A stretch of 11,709 nt of DNA, taken from Chlamydiia bacterium. GTDB lineage: Bacteria > Chlamydiota > Chlamydiia > Chlamydiales > Parachlamydiaceae. Where the stretch lies: assembly GCA_038257035.1 (NCBI GenBank), contig JBBSJT010000076.1, positions 1-11,709 of the forward strand, in the 5' to 3' direction. A program made the position numbers. Positions 1 through 6,000 of the stretch are shown here, one piece after another (positions within the stretch are counted from its first letter, which is position 1; every line of letters begins with the position of its first letter).

Positions 1-3000
1 CAGTTTAATTTTGAGAAAATCGTCGAAGATGATCAAGAATTGATGGAATCTTTTTTATTACAGCATTATCAGCAAGCAGGGGAGTCAGAGGAAGCTGATC
101 TACCTCATGAAATTTTGCTGCCGGTATTGCTTGATCATGCAGCGATTTCAGATATTTTATCGGCAAATAAAAAACGAAAAGTTTATGTTTTGACCCCTCA
201 AAAAGGAGAAAAGCTGTCACTTGTCGAAATGGCTTTTCTTAATGCGGAGGCCACTTTCAAAAAAGATAAAGACATCAAAAACATCAGAGAGCAAACCCTT
301 GTCGAGATGAAAGAGAAGTTTAGCTTGCAAAACATGCCCTACCGGATTGAATGCTTTGATAATTCGAATATGTCAGGCCAATTGGCTGTGTCAGCACTTG
401 TTGCTTTCACAGATGGGGTTAAAGATAGCAAACGCTACCGTCGCTATAAAGTTAAAACTGTGACAGATCAAGATGATTATGCCACTATGCAGGAAGTTTT
501 AACAAGACGTTTTATACGTGCTAAAGAAGAAAATGATTTGCCCAATTTGTTAATTATTGATGGAGGAAAGGGCCATTTAAATATTGCCCTTAAAGTTTTG
601 CGTGATTTAGAGGTAGTCACCGTAGATGTGATTGGGGTGGCAAAAGAAAAAGGACGCCACGATAAAGGCATGACGGATGAGCAAGTTTTTCTTCCTAATA
701 TAAAAGATGCGATTCATCTTAAATCAAATTCCAAAGTCTTATTTTTACTACAACAAATTCGAGATGAGGCGCATCGGTTTGCTATCACTTTTCATAAAAA
801 CTTAAGAAGTAAGAAGATGATTAAAAGTGAATTGGATGATCTGCTTGGAATCGGTCCAAAAAAAAAACAACTTCTGCTTGCCCATTTTGGCAGTATCAAA
901 AAAATGAAAGAAGCTACCCGAGAGGATTTCTTAAAGGTGAAAGGCCTTTCTAAGACGAACATAGAACTCCTTTTAAATTTTATAGCTAAAGATAAAGCAT
1001 GAATACTCATTTTGTCTCCAATTATTGGCCTCACATTAATACCTTGCCTCCGGAAATTGTAAATATTATTTTTTCTGATCATGATTTTTTAATGACTCAT
1101 TCGGTCAATCAGAAATGCAGGGAAGTTTTTAAAGAGACACTACAAATGGAAGAGGTGCAAAAAAAAGGCGTTTACCAAAAAAGCTTATTGCTAGAGGGGA
1201 TAAGGCTCATTTCTGATCTTGAAGACATCAAGAACAAAAAAAGGCTAAAAACAATTCATCAGGCATATTTTGATAAAAAATGTTATTTTTTTGGTGAAAG
1301 TAAATGGAATAAAACTGTTTGGGACCTTTACTGCAATGTTTTAGACAATTTGGAAAAAAATAAAAAAGGCAAATCCTGGAACCTTTTAAAAGCATTGGCT
1401 ATTAATAATGAAGGTGCAGCTATAGCAATCAAAGCCGTAAAAGCATTTGATGGTGGTTCAAGAGATTGTATCAGTAAATTTAAGATAGACGACCTTTGTA
1501 TCATAGCTTACAAAATAAAAAGCGAGCAAGCCATTTATTTTGCAGTTGGAGGCAAGGAAAAATTTCATCAGTTAAGTATTTTTGAAGTTGCTCATAAATA
1601 CTTGGGAATGGGATTTTCTGTCATGCGGGGGATCGATGAACGAGAGGGAATCCTTCACCCCTTTATTGCAATCCAATATAAAAACCCTTTAATGGACAAT
1701 AGAGTAGAGATCGCTTTTTTTAATTGTGCTTTGGGTTTAGATCCATCCAGTGCAGATTATGGTAACTGGTCTTTTTCTGGCAAATTGGAAAGAGGTAAGG
1801 CAGGATTATTATCAAAGTATTCGCGATCATATGTAACAAAAGACAAATGGCCTACCCAATACAAGTATCATTGTGAGTATAATAAAACTACTGAATACCT
1901 TTTTTTATCAACTTCCTTTTGCCTACAACATCCTTGGGTGGCTCCGCTACAACAATTGTTCACAACCGGCCATTGCCCCGTCTACCCCAACGACCCCCAA
2001 AGCCCCCAGTACGAGCTCGTTGCACAGTAGGGTGCTGTGCTTTGTAGCGTAGGTTTTAACCTGCGCATGTTCAACGGGTTTTAACCCGTTGCCTTGCACG
2101 CATGCAGGTTAAAACCTACGCTACAAGCTAGTCATAAAAAAGATTTCAAACAAATTCTTCTTGTGATACAAATATTTTTAATCCAAAAAAAAGAAGGGAT
2201 TTAACATGTTTGTACCATCAACTTTTTCAAGAATAATAGCTCCTAGAATTGGCTTTCAATCTCTGCAATCTACATTTTGCAATAAGCCACAACCGGAAAA
2301 CCAAAAAATTATAGAATTAGGAGATCAATTTTTTAAAGTACAAACAGAAGAATATAAAAATAATAAAAGAACTTTTGAAACCATTCATAAAGATATTGTG
2401 GGCTCTCCATTTTATAATGCTATATTGGTCGTCCTTTTTTGCGTATCAATAACAGGTTTTTTTAATGATAAAGCATTCAATCGTGATTACTATTAATTCT
2501 TTAAAGGATCTTTGTATACACATGAGTTATTATAAAAAGCCTCGGAAGCACTTTCAGGACGGTGGATATGTTCTTTTTGTCCTTTAAGTCCTTGAAAAAT
2601 CCCCAAAAGAAACTCCCATTAAAAACACTAAAAAACCCGAACACTTTTTTTAACTAAAAAAAACTTGCACAAATTTTTGCATTCAGCTATGCTTTTGCCT
2701 TCTAATGGGGTATTAGCTCAATTGGTTAGAGCGCCACGTCGACATCGTGGAGGTCAGCTGTTCGAGTCAGCTATACCCCATTTTTTATACTTACAGTAAT
2801 TTTCATGAAATCATTTCCATCTAATCAAATTCCGGTCCAACAGATTCAAAGGGTAGCTGCTGAAGTCTTAGCTTCTGCTATTTTAGAAATTTTTCCGGAT
2901 GCCGTTCTTGTTTCAGGAAATGCAACAGACCTTGATTTTTACTACGATTTTCAGTTCAAGCAGCCATTATCAGAAGAAAATCTTTTTTTGGTAGAAGAGC

Positions 3001-6000
3001 GCATGAGGGGAATCATCAAAGAAAGCAAGCCTGTTGAAATGCTCGAAATGATGCGCCAAAATGCGATTGGCTTATTTCGTCATCAAAATCAGCCCTATAA
3101 AATTGATGAATTAGAACTTATATCCGACAATATCGTTCAAATATGGAAGATGGGGGATTTTTATGATGTGTGCAAACCTCCTTACGGCTCTTCTTCCGAT
3201 ATAGCGCAAGCTTTTAAACTTCAAAAGGTTGAGAGAAAAACGATTGCCATTCCTTTCTTTAAATCAGGCACGAAACAGTATAAAAAATCTCAAGTGATCA
3301 GAATACGCGGAACTGCATGGTCAAATAAGGCTGACTTAAAAGATTATTTGAAAAAAACTGAAAAAGGTAAAAGAAAAGATCACCAGGCTCTTGGACTTGA
3401 TATGGGTCTTTATACTTTTGAAGATGAAGTTTTCCCGAATGAGCCTTGCTGGCTGCCAAAAGGAATGGAAATCAGAGAATCTCTATTAAATTTTTTAAAA
3501 AGCCAAGATCAGCTCTTAGGATTCGCCCAAGTTTTGACGCCAAATTTAGTGAAACCTTCGTTTTTAACCAAAACAAATCCGCACAAATCAGACGAAAACG
3601 AGTGTGTGCCAATCATTGAAATTGAAAGCGACGATTACCAATTTATTTCAGAAAAAACAGGCGTACATGCCTTGCTTTTTAATAAAAGTCGCCACCAAGA
3701 AAAAGATTTGCCTGTCCGATACGCCGAGAGGCATAGCTGTTTTTTTGAAGGGTCAGAGGCTGAACTTAATGGACTTTTTCAGACAAGAATTTATTTGACC
3801 GATCAAGCACATATTTTTTGTACAGAAACTCAAGTTGTTGAGGAGCTTATTTCGGCTTTGCGTTTAATAGATCAAACAGTTAGAATTTCGGGGTTGAAAT
3901 TAGAGTATGTGCTAAAAAATAAAAAAGATAAAACGCATTTGTCCAAAGGGTATAAATGGTTAGAAAATGCGTTAAATGCTGTTGATTTTCAATTTATCGT
4001 TGACAAAGAGAACGACAACATTTATGCTACTCATGGAAAAGGCTTAATCCATCAAGGTCCAAGAATTGAAGTGGTGTTGATCGATGAGCTTGGACGTAGA
4101 TGGTTGATTTCTTCCCTCGGGGTAGATTCGGCTACGTCAAGTTACTTAGGGTTAAATTACCTGAACAAAGATGGTCAAAAAGAACCACCGGTGATCATCT
4201 TTAGATCGGTATTTAACTCGTTAGAGCGTTTTATTGCCTTGCTCGTCGAAAATAAGACGAGAGAGCTAAAAATTAGTGAGCAAGCAGAACTACTTCCTTC
4301 ATGGTTTAATTAAATAAGCCATAGAAGTTGAAGGTGTTTTAAGCGATTAGAATGAAAAAAAAATCCTTTGCATATTGATTGCAGAGGATAAAGAAGAAAA
4401 AAATGGCACTGTGAAAGTGGCTCTTTAATAAAAAGGGTTAACCGATCAGGGAATGGTTCTTAGTTCTTTTATCAAGAAATTGAAAGAAGAGTAAAAAATC
4501 AGGCCGGCCATTTCAAATGAGGAGATAGGAAGTCGGTTGAGAGTTAACAGAGAAATACGCGCTCCAAAAGTTCGCGTTATAAGCCAGACCGGAGAACAAA
4601 TTGGCGTCCTAGCGCTTTACGAAGCATTAGCTATGGCCGAACAAGATGGACTTGACCTTGTTGAAATCTCACCGGGTGCAAGCCCGCCTGTTTGTAAGAT
4701 CATAAATTACGGAAAATTCCGTTATGATCAAACCAAACGGGAAAAAGAAAGTAAAAAGGCGCAGCATCAAGTTAAAATTAAAGAAGTCAAGCTTAAACCG
4801 AATATTGACGACAATGACTTTCAAACTAAAATGCGCCATGCACGCGACTTTGTTACTAAAGGTAATAAAGTTAAAGTGTCATGCGTTTTTCGCGGAAGAG
4901 AGATGGCTCATCCAGAAATTGGACAACGTTTAGTTGACAAATTCTGTGAAGACCTCGCCGATATTGCAACGGTTGAAGCTCCGGCGAAAATGTTTGGAAG
5001 AATGTTAACTGCTGTTTTGGCACCTGGAATGAAGAAGAAAAAAGAGGAACCAAGACAGGGACAAGACCCGTCACATTCAGAAATGAACAAAAACGGATAA
5101 ATGAGAGATAATTGACTAAAACTCCTTGTGAAATGATTTTTTGAAGTCGTTTTACTTTAAGAGAGTTTAAATAAGAGTGATTATCGAGGGGAAGTTACAA
5201 GTGGTAAAGGTAAAATTAAAAACGAAGAAGGCTGTAGTAGCCAGATTTAAGTTGACGGCATCAGGGCAGCTAAAAAGAAGCAAACCTGGTAAACGTCATA
5301 TTTTAACAAAAAAAACATCAAAGCGTAAACGTCAACTGTCAAATCCTGCTTTAGTTAGTGAGTGTCAGTTAAAGATGTACAAACGTGTTATGGGTGTTTA
5401 AAAAAATATACAATGTGGAGATGACAAATGGTTAGAGCAACTAACAGCGTCGCTTCACATCGACGCAGAAAAAGATTATTTAAGCGAGCTAAAGGCTTCG
5501 TTGGAGATCGTAAAAATCACGTTCGTTTAACACAAGACTGTGTTCTTCGTGCGTTGGCTTACAATTATCGCCACCGTAAGCTCAGAAAGCGTGAGTTCCG
5601 AAGACTTTGGATCACACGTATCGGAGCTGCCGCTAAGATCAATGGAATTTCTTATAGCAAATTCATTAATGGATTGAGTAAAGCGCGATGTGAACTAAAT
5701 AGAAAAATGTTAGCCGATATGGCTATCCGCGACCCATTCGGCTTTACAGCTGTTGTGAGTCGTGCAAAAGAAGCTCTTGTTTAAACAATAGTTTCAAAAA
5801 ACAGAGCTCAAAATTATTTTTTTTTGAGTCTCTGTTTTTTTTTATTAAAATTTTTGTGAATTGGTGAATATGGAAAATTCGATTGAAGCACTACGAACTG
5901 AATTTATAAATGAAATCAAAGCTGTCGATTCCTTAAATGACCTTGAACAGTTAAAAGTCAAATATCTCGGTAAAAAAGGACCGATTCAAAATCTGATGAA

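Follow-up and report, generated by a model that had tools for sequence, protein, structure and literature searches.

The gene at positions 2805-4313 (strand +) of a contig from a Chlamydiia bacterium encodes a protein that, as its sequence supports, is a conserved derivative of threonyl-tRNA synthetase (ThrRS) and cannot be a normal ThrRS. Because the catalytic residues were lost yet selection is maintained, the protein most likely has a different job, and we consider it probable that selection preserves it in a new role other than aminoacylation. The whole stretch that was analyzed, hereafter the window, comprises 11,709 nucleotides. The open reading frame (ORF) is real, and the genes around it lie on the + strand in the following order.

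2706-2781, strand +: tRNA-Val(GAC), detected by ARAGORN, 23 nt 5' of the ATG of the ORF
2805-4313, strand +: gene for the ThrRS-derived pseudo-synthetase, product P0001 of 502 aa (ORF translation, Pfam, NCBIfam, 1qf6 alignment, paralog alignment and structure model)
4537-5100, strand +: infC, encoding IF-3 (Pfam IF3_N and IF3_C; TIGR00168); start codon uncertain
5177-5401, strand +: rpmI, encoding L35 (Pfam Ribosomal_L35p, E = 9.5e-22); start codon uncertain
5428-5784, strand +: rplT, encoding L20 (Pfam and NCBIfam profile matches)
5861-6889, strand +: pheS, encoding PheS (Pfam and NCBIfam profile matches)

The earlier note had placed the ORF between tRNA-Val and infC, rplT and pheS; this order was observed, with rpmI also present. 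The tRNA gene and the ORF are probably co-transcribed. The pseudo-synthetase gene occupies the ancestral position of thrS before infC-rpmI-rplT-pheS, as does canonical thrS in a Nitrospirota MAG used as outgroup, which exhibited the order thrS-infC-rplT-pheS. Neither IF-3 nor a tRNA was found near the canonical thrS loci of relatives. A normal ThrRS had been reported on another contig of this genome. However, only a C-terminal fragment of canonical thrS was assembled, at a contig edge (C54:7-579), and it matches residues 448-638 of the enzyme from the same genus (86% identity).

The sole Pfam match of the 502-aa protein was tRNA-synt_2b (residues 274-483). No match to TGS, tRNA_SAD or HGTP_anticodon was detected in it, and thus the claimed absence of the TGS and anticodon-binding domains, both of which distinguish this copy from bacterial ThrS, was confirmed. 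Further, the protein scored 242.5 bits against TIGR00418 (thrS), below the cut-off of 383.65, over profile positions 4-469 of 565. Homology to ThrRS was nevertheless clear in the alignments with E. coli ThrRS 1qf6 (residues 70-528, E = 1.9e-48) and with 6vu9 (E = 5.4e-53). The AlphaFold2 model (pLDDT 88.2, pTM 0.86) gave 1qf6_A, 6vu9 and 1nyq as best Foldseek matches, with core rmsd values of 2.7-3.1 Å across approximately 300 columns. As modeled, the protein retains the fold that it shares with bacterial ThrS, comprising the N2 domain, the linker and the class II core, in which the following segments were delimited.

2832-3329, strand +: N2 (editing-like) domain, residues 10-175 (1qf6 and 6vu9 alignment, secondary structure of the model and column table)
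3045-3092, strand +: family-specific motif EMMRxNAxxxFxHxxQ, residues 81-96, not in canonical ThrRS (paralog column counts)
3330-4271, strand +: linker helix and degenerate class II catalytic core, residues 176-489 (Pfam, 1qf6 alignment, column table and Foldseek)
3843-3869, strand +: second family-specific stretch, consensus ELISSLQFI, residues 347-355 (paralog column counts and consensus)

Residue equivalences were read by hand from the 1qf6 alignment, and the roles given here are those that we take these E. coli ThrRS residues to have. Unlike bacterial ThrS, the protein has replacements at two zinc ligands (C334 by T285, H511 by F466), in motif 2 (R363 by F314, E365 by G316), at D383 (Q334) and at the editing histidines (H73 by R16, H77 by E20). 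The losses of the motif-2 arginine and of the editing histidines had been predicted correctly. In contrast, the statement that all three zinc ligands were replaced was wrong because His385 is kept (H336), so that the loss concerns two of the three. Motif-3 Arg520 (R475) and the editing-site residues D180 and C182 (D121 and C123) are also unchanged.

These replacements extend beyond this copy. In column counts from 29 aligned paralogs and 17 canonical chlamydial ThrRS, in which columns are uncertain for the most divergent copies, Cys334 was retained in 0/29 paralogs, Arg363, His511 and His77 in 1/29 each and His73 in 2/29, whereas all 17 canonical enzymes keep these five residues, bar one H77Q. 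Arg520 was retained in 27 paralogs and His385 in 13. Among 122 columns invariant in the canonical enzymes, the canonical residue persists in at least 20 of the 29 paralogs at 26 columns and in all 29 at two. Judging from these columns, this copy and the family at large have lost both the threonine/zinc/ATP site and the editing histidines. No replacement residue is conserved at the lost positions, and therefore no alternative chemistry seems to be maintained at the old active site.

The family possesses conserved motifs of its own, which by the same counts are concentrated in the N2 domain. In EMMRxNAxxxFxHxxQ, M82 is present in 29/29 paralogs, N86 in 27, A87 in 26 and H93 and Q96 in 23 each; canonical ThrRS has different residues at these columns. 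In ELISSLQFI, the counts are 26 for I349, 24 for S350, 28 for L352 and 26 for I355. Other family-specific positions are K183 (27/29), W216 (26/29) and C339 (26/29).

Sequence comparisons indicate that the paralog is under purifying selection. For three pairs with 67-74% identity, NG86 dN/dS came to 0.16, 0.14 and 0.15, although dS in these pairs was approximately 1 or more and hence near saturation; the same comparison gave 0.02-0.12 for IF-3 and 0.02-0.04 for PheS. The paralog evolves faster than these neighbors, with a dN 2-5 times theirs. When this copy was compared with a strain of approximately 93% identity, 32 of the 38 listed differences within the ORF were at third codon positions and 29 were synonymous (counts from the 40 of 315 differences listed). 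The protein P0002 (95% identity) differs from this copy at 24 of 502 residues.

Among the relatives, 34 of 40 have the paralog immediately 5' of infC, as do 27 of 34 named loci from Parachlamydiaceae and other chlamydial MAGs; spacing to infC is tight in relatives, and tRNA-Val(GAC) is upstream on the same strand in all 31 relatives' loci scanned. Placement of the gene between this tRNA and infC is thus shared by almost every relative in which it is present. The paralogs form one clade (SH-aLRT 100 and 99), with end branches of 0.55-1.55 compared with 0.19-0.48 for canonical chlamydial ThrRS; as had been noted, this copy and its same-genus counterpart share 48% identity. In contrast, none of 26 genomes (1.0-1.3 Mb) of family f20, probably the Chlamydiaceae, gave a second ThrRS-like match at E <= 1e-8. 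Conservation across Chlamydiales therefore applies to the majority of families rather than to every one, and a family-wide occurrence in Chlamydiota overstates the range. The earlier view of a conserved pseudo-synthetase without aminoacylation agrees with the near-complete loss of Cys334, Arg363 and His511, with purifying selection and with the ThrRS-like fold, but not for every family. Further, the slot between tRNA-Val and infC is empty in two relatives (G028 and G026), and five further infC loci gave no match with the paralog HMM. Some lineages can thus dispense with the gene.

HisZ, a HisRS-like regulatory subunit that, like this copy, has no anticodon-binding domain, and SLIMP resemble the pseudo-synthetase in that they are derived from an aminoacyl-tRNA synthetase (aaRS), have an ablated active site and are selected beside an active paralog. 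HisZ is mentioned in PMC7373986, and SLIMP, a SerRS-like partner of SerRS2, in PMC10570016. The pseudo-synthetase differs in that it has ThrRS as its parent, is bacterial and restricted to chlamydiae, and has a modeled dimer interface that is not specially conserved. A second ThrRS-like gene per genome is also present in Anabaena (T1/T2), in Bacillus, in which ThrS/ThrZ are duplicated active ThrRS, and in eukaryotes (ThrRS-L); those proteins aminoacylate, whereas the pseudo-synthetase does not possess the residues needed. The duplications in Anabaena and eukaryotes are given in PMC9437257 (Table 1 and text). MRPL39, which belongs to the mitochondrial ribosome and derives from the N-terminal part of ThrRS, likewise reuses a ThrRS N-terminal-like domain non-catalytically, and residues 43-141 weakly matched its structure 4ce4_c (E = 0.00094). 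However, MRPL39 is a eukaryotic ribosomal protein without the class II core, whereas the pseudo-synthetase has this core.

It is unlikely that the protein is a non-catalytic partner subunit of canonical ThrRS, pairing with the active enzyme in a class II heterodimer and modulating it. A complex predicted from residues 226-535 of the same-genus ThrRS and residues 176-495 of the paralog, that is, from the two cores, scored 0.84 (best of three controls, 0.00). Among solved complexes, 116 of 157 attained this mark, and among mismatched pairs, 2 of 215 did; the runs agreed in at least 91% of contacts, with partner pLDDT of at least 79. This pass may only mirror ThrRS homodimers, because these are solved structures, and a homodimer would equally pass. 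Motif-1 Pro246 is kept in 22/29 paralogs, and the family-specific W216 and R/K224 (25/29) are within the modeled interface. However, where the partner evolves slowly, conservation of the interface is expected, whereas mean pair identity among paralogs was 0.165 at the 43 interface positions and 0.23 in the rest of the core, and the interface was no more canonical-like than that rest (0.167 versus 0.235). Precedents for such partners are SLIMP with mitochondrial SerRS2 of insects and the Anabaena T1/T2 pair (PMC10570016 and PMC4787780).

We consider it very unlikely that the gene is a decaying thrS relic with a functionless product, whose frame stays open only through its position between the tRNA-Val promoter and infC (transcription, processing or translational coupling). 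The fast evolution, the tight spacing to infC and the clean absence of the gene in some lineages, where tRNA-Val directly precedes infC, are consistent with a relic, as are repeated domain losses (copy lengths of 336-591 aa), broken copies in G001 (frameshifted; contig coverage 2.7) and G024 (one TAA stop) and a promoter-like TTGACA-17-TATGCT within the ORF at 4000-4028. However, promoter-like sites were not clearly in excess of shuffles (15 versus a mean of 8.7, sd 3.5). The dN/dS of approximately 0.15, the third-position bias, the invariant or nearly invariant family-specific residues and the confident predicted fold argue against a relic; further, similarity to ThrRS still stands at E 1e-50 across families, whereas under neutral drift it would have disappeared.

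A repressor of its own operon, which like E. coli ThrRS would bind an operator resembling tRNA(Thr) and act translationally or transcriptionally, is very unlikely. Such control had been suggested in the earlier note. The gene heads the infC-rpmI-rplT-pheS cluster, and many family members (16/34) keep the Pfam anticodon-binding domain, as bacterial ThrS does. This appears from the alignment to be the best-conserved paralog domain relative to canonical ThrRS, with canonical-invariant columns kept in 50% of cells compared with 27% in N2 and 31% in the core (percentages for the 17/29 paralogs that have at least 70 residues beyond the core). However, operator control by E. coli ThrRS requires that domain, which is absent from this copy and, by Pfam, from 18/34 members. 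Here it was, as read from the DNA, lost through deletion, and a remnant lies in the spacer 5' of infC.

4357-4488, strand +: remnant of the lost anticodon-binding domain, out of frame and with stops (tblastn, with the last 125 aa of the same-genus paralog as query; query residues 79-122, 43% identity, E = 2.5e-6)

Further, the leader from tRNA-Val to the ATG spans only 23 nt here (30 nt or less in 22 of 31 relatives), so that an operator would have little space, and no leader element from Rfam was detected within the window. Operator control by this copy is thus unlikely. An enzyme with a new activity, such as hydrolysis or transfer in a remodeled N2 pocket, for example trans-editing of another aminoacyl-tRNA, is similarly unlikely: N2 is the most widely retained part, with the shortest copies (336-405 aa) matching the family profile mainly there, E (E20 here) is at the His77 position in 18/29 paralogs, and EMMRxNA lies just N-terminal of the equivalent of K156, presumably the editing lysine (1qf6 alignment), but the editing HxxxH pair is lost, other pocket residues persist in no more than roughly half of the paralogs (D121 in 16/29, C123 in 15/29), Pfam tRNA_SAD matches 1/34 members and no conserved catalytic-type residue set was identified.

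The reading of a selected, non-aminoacylating pseudo-synthetase is weakened by its fast evolution, dispensability, repeated domain loss and broken copies, all of which we counted against it. That its mechanism is binding of RNA or tRNA is a tentative suggestion; median pI (6.0 for the paralogs, 6.2 for canonical ThrRS) shows no shift to a basic RNA-binding protein, which counts against binding. A complete second thrS elsewhere in the genome would perform charging, and the pseudo-synthetase would act through binding and not catalysis. Its likeliest ligand would be RNA or a tRNA acceptor end, held in the remodeled former editing pocket of N2, and in its ancestors the anticodon-binding domain would have contributed to this binding. 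The role of the pseudo-synthetase would be related to translation.

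The 502-aa ThrRS-derived protein (paralog, P0001) is encoded by an open reading frame that lies directly behind a tRNA gene and heads an operon of translation genes, in the following order:

2706–2781, + strand: tRNA-Val(GAC), 23 nt 5' of the paralog ATG
2805–4313, + strand: paralog, open reading frame of 502 aa
4537–5100, + strand: IF-3 (infC)
5177–5401, + strand: L35 (rpmI)
5428–5784, + strand: L20 (rplT)
5861–6889, + strand: PheS (pheS)

No obvious Shine-Dalgarno sequence was found in the 23 nt between tRNA-Val and the ATG. In most relatives (loci L006–L070), tRNA-Val(GAC) is likewise located 0–30 nt 5' of the paralog start codon. 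The mRNA leader of the paralog would be very short, or absent, once the 3' end of the tRNA is processed. The sole Rfam match in the window was a bacterial small SRP RNA (RF00169, 46.9 bits) at the window end (11467–11566), and no leader element was detected by Rfam in the window. Two ORFs without a Pfam match, 999–2030 (343 aa) and 2206–2496 (96 aa), lie between uvrC and tRNA-Val and matched nothing among the loci of the relatives, in several of which the distance from uvrC to the tRNA is much smaller. Another ORF without a Pfam match (9019–9603, − strand, 194 aa) adjoins a BioD-like/DRTGG gene.

The single Pfam match in the paralog was the class II catalytic core (tRNA-synt_2b, residues 274–483, E = 2.1e-18); the TGS, tRNA_SAD (PF07973) and anticodon-binding (PF03129) domains gave no Pfam match. 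The NCBIfam thrS model (TIGR00418) scored 242.5 bits, below its cut-off of 383.65, over profile positions 4–469 of 565. Because this model matched 30 of 34 family members at E ≤ 0.001 (best E = 1.7e-134), some paralogs are possibly annotated automatically as thrS. The closest solved structures were ThrRS 6vu9 (E = 5.4e-53) and E. coli ThrRS 1qf6 (E = 1.9e-48; query residues 13–483 against residues 70–528).

Residues were mapped by a hand reading of the 1qf6 alignment. In the E. coli enzyme, we take Cys334, His385 and His511 to be the zinc ligands, R363 and E365 to be the motif-2 Arg and Glu of class II, R520 to be the motif-3 Arg, and H73 and H77 to be the editing histidines. Replaced in the paralog were H73 (by R16), H77 (E20), H186 (Y127), C334 (T285), R363 (F314), E365 (G316), R375 (Q326), D383 (Q334), Y462 (Q417) and H511 (F466). 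K465 was changed conservatively (R420), and D180 (D121), C182 (C123), H309 (H260), H385 (H336) and R520 (R475) were unchanged. The equivalents of the editing HxxxH and CxxxH motifs are R16...E20 and C123...Y127. Thus, the paralog has lost two zinc ligands out of three, the motif-2 Arg and Glu, and the editing histidines. This agrees with the earlier note as to the motif-2 Arg and the editing histidines; its statement that all three zinc ligands were replaced holds for C334 and H511 but not for H385.

An AlphaFold2 model of the paralog from a 34-row alignment (pLDDT 88.2, pTM 0.86) had the ThrRS fold, comprising an editing-like domain (N2, residues 10–175) and the catalytic core. Foldseek placed ThrRS structures first (1qf6_A, E = 6.5e-39), with catalytic-domain entries at an rmsd of 2.7–3.1 Å over ~300 columns. 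When the paralog core was modelled with the core of a canonical (normal) chlamydial ThrRS, the complex scored 0.84 versus 0.00 for the best control, passing a mark that had been attained in 116 of 157 solved complexes and in 2 of 215 mismatched pairs; the contact agreement of the runs was at least 91% and the partner pLDDT at least 79. Because ThrRS dimers are already solved structures, this score reports likeness, not binding, and the pass probably came from likeness to those dimers. Further, conservation among paralogs at the 43 modelled interface positions was 0.165 versus 0.23 in the rest of the core, and likeness to the canonical enzyme was 0.167 versus 0.235. The modelled interface was therefore not preferentially conserved, which does not favour an obligate heterodimer with canonical ThrRS.

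The loss of catalytic residues extended across the family. We aligned the catalytic sites of 17 canonical and 29 paralog sequences, in which the columns of the most divergent copies are uncertain. The 17 canonical sequences retained every listed residue except for one H77Q.

Table. Retention of catalytic residues (E. coli ThrRS numbering) in 29 paralogs
Cys334: 0 of 29
Arg363: 1 of 29
His511: 1 of 29
His73: 2 of 29
His77: 1 of 29 (Glu in 18)
His385: 13 of 29
Asp180: 16 of 29
Cys182: 15 of 29
Arg520: 27 of 29

The replacement residues varied from copy to copy, indicating that no alternative chemistry is conserved at the old site. The lowest conservation in the paralogs was found in the former amino-acid site (residues 251–300). 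Among 122 columns invariant in canonical ThrRS, the residue was retained in at least 20 of 29 paralogs at 26 columns and in all 29 at 2. The paralogs carry a signature in N2, EMMRxNAxxxFxHxxQ, that does not occur in canonical ThrRS (M82 in 29/29; M83; R84; N86 in 27; A87 in 26; F91; H93; Q96). Other paralog-specific positions are K183 (27/29), W216 (26/29) and C339 (26/29), together with the stretch ELISSLQFI at residues 347–355. The shortest copies (336–405 aa) matched the family profile mainly over N2 and parts of the core, so that N2 looks like the indispensable part of the paralog. The Pfam model tRNA_SAD (PF07973) matched 1 of 34 family members.

The anticodon-binding domain (ABD) was detected by Pfam in 16 of 34 family members. 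In the 17 paralogs (of 29) that extend 70 residues or more past the core, residues invariant in canonical ThrRS were retained in 50% of cells in the ABD, versus 27% in N2 and 31% in the core. The homologues P0004, P0006 and P0007 possess the ABD, and the ~500-aa homologues P0002, P0003 and P0005 have the same C-terminal boundary as P0001, just past LPxW(L/F). In the 224-nt spacer 5' of infC, a remnant of the C-terminal part of the ABD, out of frame and with stops, was found at 4357–4488 (43% identity to the same-genus paralog, E = 2.5e-6); it may persist because this DNA is now the infC leader or promoter. A promoter-like TTGACA-17-TATGCT (10/12 matches) inside the paralog ORF, at 4000–4028, is a possible internal infC promoter. 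The counts of the promoter and terminator scan were not clearly above those of shuffles, and a TTGCAC-17-TATGCT 5' of tRNA-Val (2665–2693) was recognised by eye and is absent from the scan output. Contigs of the metatranscriptome run X13, which give no expression levels, covered 2773–2926 at depth 2 and 4338–5709 at depth 36–65 and left the remainder of the ORF uncovered.

In the assembly of this organism (210 contigs, 95.8% complete), a strong match to the thrS model was detected solely at the start of contig C54 (profile positions 384–562). A tblastn search with the same-genus canonical enzyme aligned C54:7–579 to residues 448–638 (86% identity) and found nothing of the N-terminal two thirds in the assembly. 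Since the C-terminal fragment lies at the contig edge, canonical thrS is probably present in this genome and was cut by the assembly; the normal ThrRS reported earlier on another contig is assembled as this fragment only. A canonical copy was found in 40 of 40 relatives searched, with an open frame of ~640–680 aa (in a few of them split or incomplete), and a second match, shorter or more divergent, in most of them. Neither IF-3 nor a tRNA adjoins the canonical loci. What looked like a broken paralog in one relative (locus L072, G035:C6) was actually its canonical thrS, which falls into two overlapping ORFs (638 and 472 bits with the canonical profile) through a frameshift or through misassembly. 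The full-length ThrRS at locus L016 (G023:C168), which carries H77Q, grouped with non-chlamydial ThrRS and not with the other canonical chlamydial copies; transfer or contamination is possible.

The position of the paralog was conserved. In an ORF-level comparison, it lay directly 5' of infC in 34 of 40 relatives; genomes G035 and G037 were among the six that were not counted. In G001, of the same genus, the copy was frameshifted and the contig (title coverage 2.7) stopped short of infC, and in G014, which is 57% complete, infC was not found. The slot was empty in G028 and G026, in which tRNA-Val(GAC) was directly 5' of infC and the next upstream ORFs encoded an FAD-binding protein and a Mur ligase. 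At the paralog-less loci L064 and L065, the tRNA is directly 5' of infC. All 31 paralog loci scanned had tRNA-Val(GAC) 5' of the paralog, in the same orientation. With start codons of our choice, the ATG followed the tRNA after no more than 30 nt in 22 loci, after 31–150 nt in 7, and after ~0.9 and 1.7 kb in 2. In a Nitrospirota MAG, the order is canonical thrS-infC-rplT-pheS, indicating that the slot now taken by the paralog was ancestrally that of thrS.

When named records were searched with a 10-member paralog alignment, an intact paralog followed by IF-3 was found in 27 of 34 loci, 3 loci held a canonical ThrRS from another phylum, and the remaining 4 were cut or fragmented. Loci L104 and L107 are uninformative on decay because the ORFs are fragmented in every gene of the locus. 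The named carriers were Parachlamydiaceae, other chlamydial MAGs and the cultured strain Parachlamydiaceae bacterium HS-T3. Across the phylum, at least two matches at E ≤ 1e-8 were found in 74 of 120 sampled genomes (our table count, of matches and not of copy numbers).

Table. Genomes with at least two matches, in families of the phylum
f1: 11 of 11
f22: 14 of 14
f8: 12 of 13
f19: 6 of 13
f5: 5 of 14
f20 (1.0–1.3 Mb genomes): 0 of 26 (one match in 25; one genome limited by the tool)

Three infC loci of f20 had neither the paralog nor tRNA-Val nearby, and two infC loci of f19 had tRNA-Val 0.8–1.2 kb upstream and no match to the paralog profile. The paralog family is widespread without being universal; f20, which is probably Chlamydiaceae, lacks it.

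Selection on the paralog was estimated as dN/dS (NG86) in three pairs of 67–74% identity; the ratios are rough because dS was ~1 or more.

Table. dN/dS in the three pairs
Paralog: 0.16, 0.14, 0.15
IF-3: 0.12, 0.02, 0.08
L20: 0.04, 0.07, 0.07
PheS: 0.02, 0.04, 0.03

The dN of the paralog was 2–5 times that of its neighbours. A related strain was present in the contigs of three DNA runs, and 38 of the 40 differences listed (315 in total) were in the ORF, 32 of the 38 at third codon positions and 29 synonymous. Further, P0002, which is 95% identical, differed from the paralog at 24 of 502 residues. Judged from these ratios, the third-position bias and the P0002 differences, selection on the paralog protein is clear, and it is weaker than that on the essential neighbours. 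The divergence of the strain was uneven along the operon: in contigs of run X2, there were 111 differences over 2726–4271 (~7%, paralog) versus 25 over 4357–5499 (~2%, infC-rpmI-rplT).

The paralogs formed one clade (SH-aLRT 100 and 99 in two trees) on a long stem, with end branches of 0.55–1.55 versus 0.19–0.48 for canonical chlamydial ThrRS. Rows L128, L142, L155 and L191 of the second tree are wrong ORFs with very long branches and are to be ignored. A constraint that joined the paralogs with 10 canonical chlamydial ThrRS, a group named after the tree had been seen, was not rejected (delta lnL 5.57, p-AU 0.164). The paralogs may stem from a duplication inside the chlamydiae, or the original thrS may have been replaced by an acquired one. 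As to descent from a TGS-less ThrRS behind tRNA-Val(GAC), metagenome relatives of P0011 had tRNA-Val(GAC) upstream at 4 of the 56 loci whose flanks were long enough, and 10 of 60 loci had IF-3 downstream. The P0011-relative sequences were not sister to the paralogs in the tree.

Sequence comparison and modelling indicate that the paralog is a selected, folded ThrRS descendant predicted not to aminoacylate. Like proteins of the HisZ and SLIMP kind, it has an aminoacyl-tRNA synthetase core with an ablated active site under purifying selection. Inactive synthetase paralogs with new roles are few, and each is informative.

The earlier note had proposed that the dead ThrRS controls the operon. Operator control of the E. 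coli type needs the ABD and anticodon-like hairpins in the leader. The paralog has no ABD, its leader past tRNA-Val is 23 nt, and there is no Rfam element. Given the missing ABD, the operator model is unlikely for the P0001 copy. We infer a possible role in RNA- or tRNA-related binding from the retained N2 with its own motif, the ancestral ABD, and a location within a translation operon that follows a tRNA gene. No shift of pI towards nucleic-acid binding was found in the paralogs, and this, together with the fact that the gene and its domains have been lost repeatedly, calls for caution.

A more specific and quite improbable proposal is that in environmental chlamydiae the original ThrRS became a non-catalytic RNA-handling factor. 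The remodelled N2 editing pocket, with its EMMRxNA..H..Q motif, would hold the 3' end of a tRNA, one candidate ligand being that of the tRNA-Val precursor, which is transcribed directly 5' of the paralog gene. The paralog would thereby couple tRNA status or processing to the expression of the IF-3/L35/L20/PheS operon that it heads. If true, the paralog would represent a novel type of bacterial regulator derived from an aminoacyl-tRNA synthetase.

A full-text literature search did not yield any account of a bacterial ThrRS paralog that is catalytically dead. In Table 1 of a 2022 review, T2 and ThrRS-L are the sole ThrRS duplicates, and both are active (PMC9437257); a 2020 review mentions HisZ and YadB among paralogs that serve other functions (PMC7373986). 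One JGI record labels a member of the paralog family 'threonyl-tRNA synthetase', and the nearest ESM Atlas cluster, mostly Chlamydiota, has the automatic name 'hypothetical protein'. Such labels can mislead metabolic reconstructions. Members of the family occur widely among amoeba-associated and environmental chlamydiae, in which the gene heads a core translation operon, and the family illustrates an evolutionary route by which the operon-slot copy of an essential gene was functionally replaced by a second copy and then repurposed, not deleted.
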